Assembly (NCBI RefSeq): GCF_964204645.1
Contig: NC_134027.1
Coordinates: 23,088,560 to 23,152,559 of the forward strand
Reading direction: 5' to 3'
DNA: 64,000 nt
From: Tubulanus polymorphus
Lineage: Eukaryota; Animalia; Nemertea
The position numbers were made by a program, and so were the translations under genes. The notes beneath the pieces were generated by a model. That model saw nothing but the letters and a program-made list of their open reading frames with translations. It was not told where the DNA came from and did not search any database. The stretch's first letter is position 1, and each line of letters begins with the position of its first letter. This document shows positions 16,561-43,332 of this stretch, piece after piece.

Positions 16561-16620
16561 ACAATAATACAAAAATCAACAACTCTTTTGACAATAATAC
16601 AAAAATCAACAACTCTTTTT
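16561..16620. repeat. 30-bp tandem duplication overlapping the gene B stop codon
   Basis: acaataatacaaaaatcaacaactctttt(g) x2. Confidence 0.85.
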
Positions 16621-16961
16621 CTGCTGCTCTTCTTCTTCACGTTGTCTGCGTCGTTCGGCCTCTTCTGCTTCCAAACGAGCGACAAGTTCAGCTTGAACTT
16701 GCGGCTCAACGACGCGACCGAGTTCCGAGTACGTCGAAAAATCCTCGAAATCACCGATCAGTACACCAGGGGGCGCTTGATTTTTGACGTTGTTAACGAC
16801 GTGTAGATAGATCGGTTCTTTTCTCAGTTCTTCTACATCGTCTGCATTGAATGCAGGGTTGTCGACACCACAGTTAACGTACTTCACGATATCCCCATCG
16901 TCATCGTTGTAAACGTCTTGATAAGGATTCGCTTCGTCGCCAACTGTTTGATAGGGATTTT
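16606..16961 (-). CDS. Gene B last coding exon (cytoplasmic: NPYQTV, NPYQDV, EPIYLHV, ITIM STYSEL, charged helix)
   Basis: tttcag acceptor; open to TGA; matches ORF 16606..17013. Confidence 0.8.
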
Positions 16962-39600: not shown

Positions 39601-42600
39601 CATATTTAGTTCAATTCTATAATAGATGCACCACAGCTTTCTTCACAAGTCGAACCAATTGCAGCAAATATAGGAGAAAGTATTAGATTTACGATAAACT
39701 TCGATGCAAATCCGCAAGCGACAACATTAGATTGCAGTCCCGATTCAACAAATGGCAAACGTTTAATGAAAAATACCGGTTCAAAGCAGTGGGATGTCAT
39801 CATACAATCAGTTCAGGCGTCTGATTATGGATCTTATTCGTGTAAACTCAATAATTCAGTTGGTAGCGCAGAAATAACACTGAAACTGACGGAAACCGGT
39901 AAGTAGGCCTACGAAGTGCCTTTTTCGGATAGGACATTTTTAGAGACACACGGTCACTTGCGCTATTTGCTACCTACAAAACTAATGAGATCTGCAGATA
40001 TCGATTGCAGTCTAAAACCTATTTTCAAAGAAAGTTTTCTTAGTCCTTCATCAACTTCATTCAACACCATTGCCCATCATCATACGTATTTTTTTGTTTC
40101 TTATTATTCCAGGAACTCCACAAACACCGTCAAATCTGTCAGTTATTGCAAAAACAGCGGTATCTGTGACGCTGAGTTGGGTGTCTGAATTTAAGGGTGG
40201 TGCCAAACAAACGTTCACCGTCAGTTACAGGATATCGGATTCCACACAATTCGTGAACAAAGCTGAAATATCCGATCCCGGTTATAGAAAACTGGTGCAA
40301 ACAAAAATAACCGGATTAAAACCAGCAACTGATTATCAGTTCAAAGTGAAAAGTGTCAACTCAAATCCCGGTGATAATACAAGTCCATTTACTGATGTAG
40401 TTACAACTAGAACAAATGGTAAGATTTGAAGCTCACGTCAATTGGAAAGCTTTCTAACACATTGCATGAATCTATCTATCGTCACCGGAGACACTAAAAA
40501 ATGCACGTCCTTGATCCTGATCGTTAGAGTTCTTCCTCAACCTTTATTTTTTTTTAATAGTGAATTTTCACTCTTATTAATTTTATTTATTGATTGATTT
40601 TTTTCTGATCTGAATTTCGCATCCGTTATCGACTCACCACGTCTTCGGAGAACGAACAGGGAGTATTACTTTGAAATCGGAAATCGAAATACAGACGAAG
40701 TAGTCGACTTACATGATTTGTTTCAAGTCGAAGTACGCAATTTCGGTTCCAGTTTGTTCGAACAATCTTTCAACTAGCCTGAACCAGCGAGCCACTGGTT
40801 AAGCCCGCCGCACACGCCACCAAAAAATCTTTTTTTCCTGGTGAAAAAAACGTCGTCGATGTTTTTTGTTATGCCGAGTGCGGGGGAGGCAAAATACAAA
40901 ACGCCGAACAGAAAATCGTTTTTCGTCAGGAAAAAACGTTTTTCACGAAAAAAAAACACTGCTTGATTTGCGAAAAACGTTTTGTTTAGCCGAAACAATT
41001 CTTCGTTCCGTGTCCGTTGGACGTTTTATCGTTTGCGGGCAAAACGTTTTACGAAAAACGTTTTGTGAAAAACGTGTTTTCTGTTTTGGCGAAACAAATA
41101 TTATGCCGCTTGCGGCGGGCTTTAGGGTTAATTTCGCTAGCTGCCCCGAGATTTGAAAATAACTCTACCATATAAATAAGGGTTGAAGTTCATGTCTCAG
41201 TCGTTAGTTTTAGCGGCTAGTGTGGGATGGACTAAACTGTAGACTCGCTCCTAATAAGACACAGCAGTGATATACGTATGCATGTATATTTTCGAATGTT
41301 TCAAGGAAAATACTGAAATTGGAGATATTTCATTCATTTTTCAGCTATTCCTAGGGCTATAAACTTTATATTGAAACAAGCCACTATAACACGAGATGGA
41401 AATCTTGTCTTGATAAGATTACCATCGTTTCCGTTAACGAAGTACCGCGTCTACGTGGAATACTGCATCAAAAATACAAAGCGATGTAAATCTACGAAAC
41501 CTATCGAAATTACCGATGGTTTGAATAGTATGCTTGAGATTGACCCCGACCATGCATATAGTTACAACCTGATTGTGACCGAGAGTCGTGACGTCATTTT
41601 GAGCCACGAGGTTCAATTGGAAGAAGGTACCGTTTGTGATATTCGGCTGTTTTCACTTGACGCCTAATACATCATTACATAATTTAATAATTCGGATTTT
41701 ATATGATAGAATTTATTATTTTGAAAACACAGCAACGTTTCGGCTGTTAACTAACAACCATCATCAGGCGGAATGATCCTGAAAGGCTCCGTTAAAGCCA
41801 CGATGATTGCTGTTAGTCAACAGTCGAAACGTTGTTGTGGTGTCAGAATAATAGATTGTATCACATAAAATTCGAATTGCGCGATTTATTCAATTATCCA
41901 CAGAGTACAGAGATACGAGTGTTTATTACGACTACCTACATCGTTACAATCAATTTACAGTTGTTGACAGTTAAGAGAAATAATTTAAAAAAAATTATCA
42001 CTGTATCAGATGCCTCTTGTTTTAGTATAGTATTTCAGTTAAGCCAATGTCTTTAACTTGACGTCATATTCAAATGTCTGAATACTTCGGTACATCATCT
42101 TTACAGATGATGGCAAGTGGAGTGTCGCTTCGTTAGTTCCGCTGATGATTGCTGGTGTTATTCTTGGTAGCATTGCGTTTTCTCTGGTGTTAATCTTAAT
42201 GATCGTACTCCTAATAAATCTACTCAGAAATAGAGGTTGCTCCTTAATTAACAAATCAAGAGGACCGTGAGTTGTTTTTAAGCTATTTCCTAACTGTGTG
42301 TGTCCTACCCGTACAATATGCCACCTTTTTGAATGATCTAGATAGAATAGCAATGCCACCCAATGCTTTAGAATTTGTACAAAACATCAAAAACGATGCA
42401 GTTTTAAAAATAAATGTCATTAAATCCATTGACGAACTTAGATTTTGAAAATAATTTGATTTTCTTAATTAAATAATTCGCCAAATTTAATGATACTTAA
42501 AAAACCAGGATGTCATGAATAGACTCGAAACTAGGCGTACATGTCACACCACGACGAGATTCGAATCCCATAATCTCCTTGAACCGAACATCCTGGCATC

Positions 42601-43332
42601 GGCGAAAGTTACAAGTTTATTTTCGGAAGTTGGGATTTGATACGTCACTAATGCTTTGAAATCCTTTCATTTCAGAGAGACTGGAAAATCAACCGTTGGT
42701 AAATGATAGCTTAAAGTAGAACTAGAGTTATATATAATTCAAGGAAAAATAAATCATAATCAAAATTATCATTATCAGTAGAATAACAGGGCTGGTAAAG
42801 ATGTTATCCATTTTGAAAATACACTATTAAAAAAGCAGATTACAATCTAATATATGTTTTATCTTATTGATTATATCATTATTGCTGAAATGATTTTGTA
42901 TCATTTCAGTTTATTCTAACAGTAATGAAGCCCGCCGTGACACAGACTCGCGTATGTATATTCGATGCATTTTACTCATACCTTCCCATCTCCCAGTGAA
43001 ATTGATTTACCATTAAGATAATTCGTCTTTCAGACTCTTACGCCGCGGCAACGCCGTACGTGAATGTGGCTTTTAGCGGTAAGTCAATCATCATTATTTT
43101 ATCAATTCACTCATACATGTGAATGACAACATTCTAAACAGAATTCTTAGAAACATCGTCACATAAAGCTTAGATGTCATCGACTTTGGTTGCAACTATT
43201 TCCTACTTTTGCTCTGCCATATTATTTTCGGGATAAAAATCATTTTTATCATCTGTGTTCATTCTTTGTTTTCCTTCAATGTAAGCAGAGTCAATAGATG
43301 ATCCGAATCCATATGAAGAAGTCAGGAACTAG
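33635..43332 (+). CDS. Gene C: complete IgSF receptor, ~830 aa (SP-V-a-c-d-f-FN3-X-TM-short tail with TPYVNV and YEEV)
   Basis: Exons 33635-33646, 33960-34011, 34921-35265, 37214-37489, 38277-38579, 38696-39022, 39626-39898, 40113-40418, 41345-41626, 42107-42266, 42676-42698, 42910-42951, 43034-43078, 43286-43332; sum 2493 nt in frame. Confidence 0.88.
33960..34011 (+). CDS. Gene C leader exon 2
   Basis: KCLAGIVVSFLMWTGIN(G); homologous to D/E leaders; preceded by the MYGK exon 33635-33646. Confidence 0.78.
34921..35265 (+). CDS. Gene C exon, atypical V-like Ig domain (2-aa deletion)
   Basis: GQQQNCIDAAD..IDSGMWNCDY; 345 nt. Confidence 0.9.
35490..37110. mobile_element. Old TIR element in the V-a intron of gene C
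   Basis: Inverted homology to B 28600-30620; boundaries approximate. Confidence 0.55.
37214..37489 (+). CDS. Gene C exon, Ig module a
   Basis: [32 protein letters not shown]; open 276 nt. Confidence 0.88.
38277..38579 (+). CDS. Gene C exon, Ig module c
   Basis: PATKLTNVKKPADYVLVNDNQQIEC. Confidence 0.9.
38696..39022 (+). CDS. Gene C exon, Ig module d
   Basis: PPESMTLTEIPNGPVVEGTSKTLTC. Confidence 0.9.
39626..39898 (+). CDS. Gene C exon, Ig module f
   Basis: DAPQLSSQVEPIAANIGESIRFTINFDANP..DYGSYSC. Confidence 0.88.
40113..40418 (+). CDS. Gene C exon, FN3
   Basis: [23 protein letters not shown]. Confidence 0.92.
40800..41124. mobile_element. MITE (TAAGCCCGCCGCA TIR)
   Basis: taagcccgccgca / tgcggcgggcttta termini; AT-rich internal palindromes. 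Confidence 0.65.
41345..41626 (+). CDS. Gene C exon, FN3-like domain X
   Basis: AIPRAINFILKQ..YVEYCIKNTKRC..IDPDHAYSYNLIV. Confidence 0.85.
41689..41877. mobile_element. Inverted-repeat Penelope-like remnant with hammerhead core
   Basis: Fold-back arms; minus strand 41731-41770 CTGATGA-TGGTTGTTAG/TTAACAGCC-GAAACGTT. Confidence 0.5.
42107..42266 (+). CDS. Gene C transmembrane exon
   Basis: SLVPLMIAGVILGSIAFSLVLILMIVLLINLLRNR; phase 1-2. Confidence 0.87.
42676..43332 (+). CDS. Gene C cytoplasmic micro-exons (4)
   Basis: PETGKSTV / VYSNSNEARRDTDS / HSYAAATPYVNVAFS / AESIDDPNPYEEVRN*; exon-for-exon homologous to gene D. Confidence 0.78.

Follow-up and report, generated by a model that had tools for sequence, protein, structure and literature searches.

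Pairs of inhibitory and activating receptors whose recognition domains are matched by gene conversion are a hallmark of those vertebrate leukocyte receptors on which pathogens or self-recognition exert pressure. In primates, SIGLEC11 and SIGLEC16 are head-to-head genes of V-set and C2 domains, in which conversion has, in fragmented tracts, affected the V exon and its neighbours, and with unlike signalling ends (PMC5701461). CEACAM1/CEACAM3 and the Xenopus ceacam pairs oppose tails with a built-in ITIM type (immunoreceptor tyrosine-based inhibitory motif) to tails with an immunoreceptor tyrosine-based activation motif (ITAM)-like or YxN type (PMC5112662), and in KLRC, KLRI, KLRB, Ly49 and PIR homogenisation limited to the ligand-binding parts of opposing receptors has been called 'merohomogenization' (PMC3210942). 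Among invertebrates, clusters of ITIM/ITAM receptors are already known from a cnidarian and a tunicate. Here we describe a 64,000-nucleotide stretch of the nemertean Tubulanus polymorphus genome (contig NC_134027.1, positions 23,088,560 to 23,152,559; hereafter the window) containing two head-to-head receptor genes, B and C, with similar ectodomains and dissimilar signalling ends. Searches of the open-access literature yielded no account of this family, nor of ectodomain homogenisation between opposing tail classes in protostomes.

Results

The window (~37% GC, animal DNA) holds receptor genes named A to E along its length, A and B belonging to a long-tail class and C, D and E to a short-tail class; their exon models were built by us from splice sites. 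Gene B (16606..32701, minus strand) encodes 1454 residues which, by exon model and Pfam, are ordered as leader, V-set, seven immunoglobulin (Ig) domains (a, b, c, b, c, d, d), I-set, FN3, a membrane-proximal domain X, a transmembrane segment and a tyrosine-rich tail of ~300 residues, and the model is identical at every residue to the T. polymorphus RefSeq protein P0006. Gene C (33635..43332, plus strand) forms one open frame of 829 residues with AG/GT borders at every exon, in the order leader, V-set, Ig a, c and d, I-set, FN3, X, transmembrane segment and a tail of ~67 residues, several internal exons of B being absent from it. Pfam recognised V-set, C2/I-type Ig and FN3 domains across the genes and gave no match to domain X or to the last tail exon of B, and an Rfam scan of the window returned 0 matches. 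B and C stand head-to-head, and the 933 bp between their start codons (32702..33634) are likely a bidirectional promoter, a layout which only suggests that the two genes are co-expressed.

The original prediction held that B and C have dissimilar leaders, transmembrane exons and tails, with an A-like leader in B and D-like ends in C, and that the V domain of B is nevertheless nearer to C than to A; all of this was borne out. Nucleotide identity of the leader exons is 95% between A and B (B leader, 32145..32205, minus strand), 82% between C and either D or E (C leader, 33960..34011, plus strand) and 67% between B and C, and the transmembrane segment plus tail are identical at 92% of residues in A/B, 60% in C/D and 24% in B/C. 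The V domain of B, by comparison, shares 85% of its residues with C, 73% with D and 71% with A, and domain by domain the B/C ectodomain identity is 58-91%. The V-set exons (B 30962..31312, minus strand; C 34921..35265, plus strand) match at 91.3% of nucleotides and the FN3 exons (B 21286..21591, minus strand; C 40113-40418) at 94.4%, and the likeness ends at the domain X exon (B 20520..20798, minus strand), where amino acid identity is 58%. Synonymous divergence (dS) between B and C is 0.07 in exon a, 0.08 in c, 0.12 in FN3, 0.13 in d, 0.15 in V, 0.25 in I-set and 0.64 in X, so that divergence varies about 8-fold along the gene.

Three introns had been described as near-identical inverted copies. 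They proved homologous at the positions named, B 30770..30961, adjoining V, matching C 35266-35457 at 177/190 (93.2%), B 27590..28221, the strongest B=C segment, matching C 37490-38117 at 586/622 (94.2%) and B 25558..25673 matching C 38580-38695 at 108/116 (93.1%), all on the minus strand in B; 'near-identical' overstates this level, the longest exact B/C match being 69 bp. Other B/C intron stretches are just 81-87% identical, and ten non-coding segments ranging over 81-94% are heterogeneous (p = 2e-11). The window differs by ~0-4% from the listed contig pieces of two DNA runs (0-2% under a 97% filter); these contigs are fragmented and paralogue-mixed and so carry no allele calls, and they give a weak hint that the B/C tracts, 6-7% divergent, are older than allelic variation.

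The ectodomain genes of B and C are mosaic. At informative sites among A, B, C and D, the leader groups AB|CD at 10:0:0 and the V domain groups BC|AD at 17 of 20 (Fisher test of the flip, p = 1e-5); elsewhere the counts are 5:2:3 in exon a and 2:6:6 in the I-set exon. Among B, C, D and E, sites grouping B with C number 17/22 in the I-set exon, 7/10 in FN3 and 1/14 in X. In the block that runs from V through the intron following exon a, 409 three-way sites (A, B, C) fall into 205 runs, against 263 +/- 9 when shuffled (p = 2e-4; 5000 shuffles), and significant single tracts within it, given on the minus strand, favour different pairs: B=C at 28226-27738 (p = 4e-4), A=B against C at 29647-29492 (23/29 sites, p = 2e-4) and A=C against B at 28952-28738 (20/25 sites, p = 2e-4). 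Clustering is mild in the c-d block (98 sites, p = 0.01), with no significant single tract, and absent in the d-f block (135 sites, p = 0.32); the three blocks pooled give 642 sites, of which 274 are B=C, 202 A=B and 166 A=C. A single duplication would leave one age and one topology and the data show several, which makes repeated exchange by gene conversion the likely cause of the mosaicism. The proposal of conversion between B and C is supported as far as conversion-type mosaicism between long-tail and short-tail genes goes, which is family-wide, and is too narrow in confining the exchange, and the upkeep of one shared specificity, to the inverted B-C pair.

About 600 aligned bases of an insertion in the V intron are common to C, A and B and lacking in D, which suggests a transfer from the long-tail class into C. 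The insertion is decayed and lies in the intron between V and a (A 8100-9000, B 29400-30640, C 35470-36300); its fragments resemble, by their motifs, a Penelope-type reverse transcriptase, and nine of its frames gave no match in Pfam.

Exchange exclusive to B and C is ruled out by the A=B and A=C tracts, by an A/B promoter tract and by V domains nearer to C than that of B. The promoter tract is an exact match of 205 bp between the upstream regions of A (11748-11952) and B (32776-32980), which have the same orientation; it sits in ~400 bp at 98-100% identity between flanks at 75-90% and is the youngest tract in the window. It likely reflects recent promoter conversion within the long-tail class, or else strong constraint, and it contains what is presumably an ETS-type site, at 11907 and 32935. 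Over 87 residues of the C V domain, 78 match P0069 and 75 match B, and the leader of P0069 is of B type (27/28); over the whole V domain, C matches P0002 at 101/114 and B at 97/114, and its 2-codon deletion is shared with P0002, P0060 and P0069 and not with B. The donor of C's V domain need not be B, and B-C is an older, partial example of pairing, not an exclusive pair. Upstream of A lies the relic of a C-type first exon (12520..12620, plus strand) with a stop after three codons, by which the head-to-head unit itself seems to have been duplicated; A too, on this sequence, appears once to have sat in such a unit. The start of the relic's intron was found at about 12980-13030, with no further short-tail exons before B's tail.

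A search with the V domain of C returned 16 proteins among 253 candidates, all T. polymorphus RefSeq models, and the family comprises 22 different models, fragments included, spread over two contigs, with 3-10 Ig domains and with RefSeq names that are nephrin-like or uncharacterized only. In a profile search of 1.84 billion representatives, 7/7 matches at E up to 1e-30 were from T. polymorphus, as was P0071, the one looked at among 52 weaker matches; in a protein search, 17 of 45 matches were family members, the best outsider being a spider nephrin (E = 1e-47, 26% identity), and SYG-2 matched at E = 8e-16. The family is seen here only in T. polymorphus and represents a species-level expansion.

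Two tail classes were found, long (8 models, ~150-300 residues) and short (10 models scanned, ~60-100 residues). In the transmembrane segment plus tail, six long tails agree with one another at 67-96%, against 17-30% for most comparisons between classes, and leader identity is 52-100% among five long-tail genes and mostly 15-47% across classes, P0060 and P0061 having a third leader type. The family trees differ by domain: the tree of transmembrane segment and tail has 2 class changes and rejects B+C (approximately unbiased (AU) test, p = 2e-64), against 5 changes for V, 5 for V+a, 6 for I-set, 4 for FN3 and 3 for X, and a long-tail clade is rejected by every one of these ectodomain trees (AU p at most 1e-5). 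These trees were built without P0016 for V and V+a (cut V model), without P0014 and P0023 for I-set, FN3, X and tail (domains absent), without P0067 for the ectodomain AU tests and without P0069 and P0071 throughout, and the AU long-tail group excluded P0060 (distant third type). Leader class tracks tail class, and the region from V to FN3 follows neighbours across classes.

The clearest case lies on the second contig (16.5 Mb), where just two members of the family were found, one per class: P0018 (long) and P0064 (short) are mutual best matches in 9/9 ectodomain domains at 87-99%, with 93% identity in V, 30% in the leader and 17% in transmembrane segment plus tail; this is a cleaner example of a pair than B/C, known as protein models alone. 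Among other members, the long-tailed P0067 is matched best by a short-tail gene in 6/10 domains, and P0002 combines a C leader (95%) with a B-like ectodomain and transmembrane segment and a short tail, and is 90-96% identical to the long-tailed P0067 in four domains. P0056 and B are identical across a stretch of four domains that begins at the second d domain and continues into the first tail exons, and P0068 joins the A ectodomain to a distal tail that by eye is B-like, although B's tail lies upstream of A; these two may be recent duplicates outside the window or misjoined models.

Tyrosine motifs were scanned in 17 tails (7 long, 10 short). At motif level, a strict ITIM is present in 7/7 long tails and 0/10 short ones. 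The nine cytoplasmic exons of B (16606..20072, minus strand) carry one strict ITIM (STYSEL), six EPIYA-like motifs of the form Y-[AS]-x-[VI], three YSN and one YVN, behind a transmembrane exon (20182..20320, minus strand) with no charged residue. The transmembrane exon and four tail exons of C (42107..43332, plus strand), likewise without a charged transmembrane residue, carry YSN, TPYVNV and a terminal YEEV, as well as a loose YxxV-x11-YxxV beside YxN, and YxN together with a YEEV/YEEI/YEDV motif is found in 10/10 short tails. The YxN and YEEV/I motifs are expected to be docking sites for the SH2 domains of Grb2 and Src/Nck. In CagA, EPIYA segments are bound by Csk or SHP2 (PMC3593179). From these motifs, an inhibitory role of the long class is the better supported half of the proposal, and an activating role of the short class is a prediction. 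Within B's tail (17544-18090) a tandem duplication has produced two identical 72-bp exons, each adding YSNV, and RefSeq isoforms skip small tail exons, so that motif number is variable.

The V domain scores above the Pfam V-set cut-off. Its structure model has nine strands at a predicted local distance difference test (pLDDT) score of 76 (four other models reached 44 or less), its top fold matches are antibody V domains, weakly (TM-score 0.4-0.6), and an Atlas search returned generic V-set clusters only. The B-F cysteines C32 and C100 are invariant in 14/14 rows, by which feature membership in Hydractinia Alr is rejected, and B has four further cysteines, making six, and lacks the C-strand tryptophan. 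The sialic-acid arginine of Siglecs, which we take to follow the F-strand cysteine, was absent from the 14 full V domains, the position being D, E, N or Q, and Siglec membership was rejected. Family-variable positions concentrate in the C/C' and F/G region (15/20 within 38/116 residues, p = 3e-5). Of these 20 positions, B shares 14 with C, 8 with D and 4 with A, and P0018/P0064 and A/P0056 share 18 each. In the V domain dN/dS is 0.72-0.95 in five of six window pairs and lowest, at 0.50, in B/C, and in I-set and FN3 it is 0.20-0.48 (FN3 of C against B, 0.35). B and C differ in V by 17 residues and a 2-residue deletion, so a ligand common to both is a plausible possibility.

Of the remaining genes, A is represented by its 5' part (1..11666, minus strand), its tail lying left of the window and the remainder being P0019; D (48229..55166, plus strand) matches RefSeq P0011 and has a tail ending YEEI; and the 5' part of E (57373..64000, plus strand) matches P0017 and has no V exon. 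At 57655-58710, E has a leader, and an (AT)84 run (58151-58318) and a partial a-type exon stand at V's place; the absence may be a real deletion or an assembly fault. Recent internal duplications alter stalk length in A (3428-7598, an a-b unit, 89%) and in E (58684-59455, exon a, 96%). Between B's two d exons (23300-25200) lies a 59-bp remnant of a c-type exon (25001-25059) followed by ~1.7 kb of unrelated DNA, which contains an inverted repeat (23719-23809 / 24322-24405) and is probably a transposon insertion. A GC- and CpG-rich island between C and D (44200-46500), with a 59-bp tandem repeat at 45458-45659, is possibly a mobile element.

Discussion

We hold it moderately probable that B and C are members of a V-set/Ig/FN3 receptor family with two tail classes and conversion-mosaic ectodomains, and that they are paired receptors, B predicted to be inhibitory and C activating; the shared ligand, the opposite signalling and an immune role are what we infer only. 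In such a system, conversion would reach those exons and introns of the ectodomain that can be aligned and would halt at the 5' and tail exons, which cannot, and recognition surfaces would thereby be shared or reshuffled with signalling ends staying fixed. With B and C inverted about a single promoter, co-expression would be possible, as would exchange without deletion. After phosphorylation by Src-family kinases, the long tails would recruit SHP- and Csk-type SH2 proteins through their ITIM and EPIYA-like motifs and dampen the response, and the short tails, through YxN and YEEV/I, would bring in SH2 proteins of the Grb2 and Src/Nck types and activate it, adaptor-free as in CEACAM3.

Several observations weigh against this reading. 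In V, dS between B and C (0.15) is hardly below that of B/D (0.18) and C/D (0.17; A/D, 0.17-0.18), and the excess likeness of B and C there is mostly non-synonymous; since V dS is low across pairs and dS to D in I-set and X is 0.5-0.9, the V and a exons seem to have been exchanged family-wide. The best match of C is a short-tail gene in 6/7 domains, and B and C are unlike at 6/20 variable V positions. The EPIYA-like pattern, present in 6/7 long tails and 0/10 short ones, was drawn up after viewing B's tail. A strict ITAM occurs in 0/17 tails and a charged transmembrane residue in 0/17, by which an adaptor-coupled activating partner is rejected; a loose ITAM (V allowed) is found in 6/10 short tails and also in 5/7 long ones, and YxN, universal in short tails, also in 5/7 long ones, so that neither separates the classes. 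A motif of the immunoreceptor tyrosine-based switch motif (ITSM) type, which can be inhibitory, is present in 7/10 short tails, that of C included. RefSeq P0009, the model of C, matches at the start, truncates the V exon, leaves out domain a and goes no further than FN3, and full-length C is thus our own model. The proteins outside the window are automatic models in a repeat cluster, of which some may be misjoined, and the closest relatives beyond the species are the nephrin/SYG-2 adhesion proteins at ~25% identity.

Conversion and unequal crossing over might instead be a by-product of a dense repeat cluster that diversifies receptors, with long/short matching incidental and no shared ligand kept. 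Tracts for all three A/B/C pairings, a youngest tract lying within one class (A/B), the free duplication and loss of internal exons, a 2-residue V deletion scattered over C, P0002, P0060 and P0069, and the likeness of two long genes, A and P0056, at 18/20 variable V positions all fit this, and we nonetheless think it rather unlikely, given that leader and tail classes are coupled family-wide while the middle moves, that the second contig's only two members are one per class with V 93% identical, and that B/C has the lowest V dN/dS of the six window pairs. Slightly less likely still, in our judgement, is that these are nephrin/SYG-2/Sidestep-like adhesion or recognition molecules of nerve, epithelium or nephridia, both tails being positively coupled to the cytoskeleton and differing in strength and not in sign. 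Nephrin and SYG-2 are the best outside matches, nephrin reportedly signals through YDxV motifs (PMC11247170), which resemble the terminal YEEV/I of the short tails and the YQDV of the long ones, and a strict ITAM is absent; nephrin and SYG-2 are, however, conserved low-copy genes, and here we see a species-level expansion that includes relics and a member lacking V, in which V dN/dS is high on one face and a strict ITIM is restricted to one class.

A decaying C, or a secreted decoy, with another gene as B's functional partner, appears improbable: the cut V and the missing transmembrane segment and tail of P0009, the loss of internal exons relative to B and the near-twin P0020, whose transmembrane segment and tail are 95% identical to those of C, would suit it, and they are set against the intact frame and splice borders of C, its FN3 constraint relative to B (dN/dS 0.35) and the absence of any C coding indel among the listed contig differences from the two DNA runs (partial tables). 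Least credible of all is that C had a single origin, when a B-like ectodomain block was duplicated in inverted orientation between a leader and a tail of D type, with no repeated exchange. B/C likeness bounded on both sides from V to FN3, and the A/B-type V intron in C, are what this would leave, yet a single age is expected and B/C dS runs from 0.07 to 0.25 within the block with introns at 81-94%, and inside one intron the topology switches back and forth. That alternation largely refutes a lone duplication with no exchange afterwards, which is rejected.

Beyond the paired-receptor reading of B and C, and more tentatively, a spiralian may have evolved vertebrate-style paired receptors independently from a nephrin/SYG-2-like ancestor, with head-to-head units on shared promoters, duplicated as units, conversion-matched recognition, and inhibition through tandem EPIYA-like Csk/SHP docking sites of the kind that bacterial effectors mimic. 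The nephrin/SYG-2 proteins share the plan of multiple Ig domains, FN3, transmembrane segment and tyrosine tail, and the RefSeq names; the family here differs from them in being only ~25% identical, in the extra domain X, in its about 20 fast-evolving copies and in its two tail classes.

Among described systems, SIGLEC11/SIGLEC16 resembles B/C in layout, tracts and unlike ends, at a spacing of about 9 kb against 0.9 kb; Siglec-16 is adaptor-coupled (PMC5701461), whereas the short tail here carries tyrosines itself and is joined to a transmembrane segment free of charged residues, and the B/C tracts are older and held in common with third genes. The ceacam pairs are alike in their opposed built-in tails, opposite gene orientation, differing leader beside a converted V exon, and variation on the CC'FG face; Xenopus conversion is confined to the N exon (PMC5112662), whereas in the present family introns are involved too and, in P0018/P0064, the entire ectodomain. 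The family is not orthologous to CEACAM and has a long nephrin-like stalk with FN3. Merohomogenization matches in its restriction to ligand-binding parts, and rests on rodents and primates with cross-species evidence where we have one species (PMC3210942). Hydractinia Alr, an invertebrate cluster with an unusual V-set, Ig, FN3-like and transmembrane domains and ITAM/ITIM tails, lacks the B-F cysteines present here and has strict ITAMs that are absent here, and gene conversion is raised for it as a possibility (bioRxiv 10.1101/2022.03.04.482883). Botryllus fester/FcoR are likewise invertebrate receptors encoded by many genes, and their tyrosine motifs are of the ITIM, hemITAM and core kinds; their co-expressed pairs join two different families, motifs are switched by allele or splicing, and the main text of that study does not contain the word 'conversion' (bioRxiv 10.1101/2024.10.16.618699); oyster IgIT is a further invertebrate ITIM/ITAM precedent (PMC11999971). 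With the vertebrate paired receptors the family shares similar ectodomains, homogenisation that spares leader and tail, and an ITIM, as motif only, in the long class. If the signalling prediction is true, Spiralia evolved this design anew on another Ig scaffold, and the genes would be named, testable candidates for receptors of immunity or of self/non-self recognition in a phylum with almost none known.

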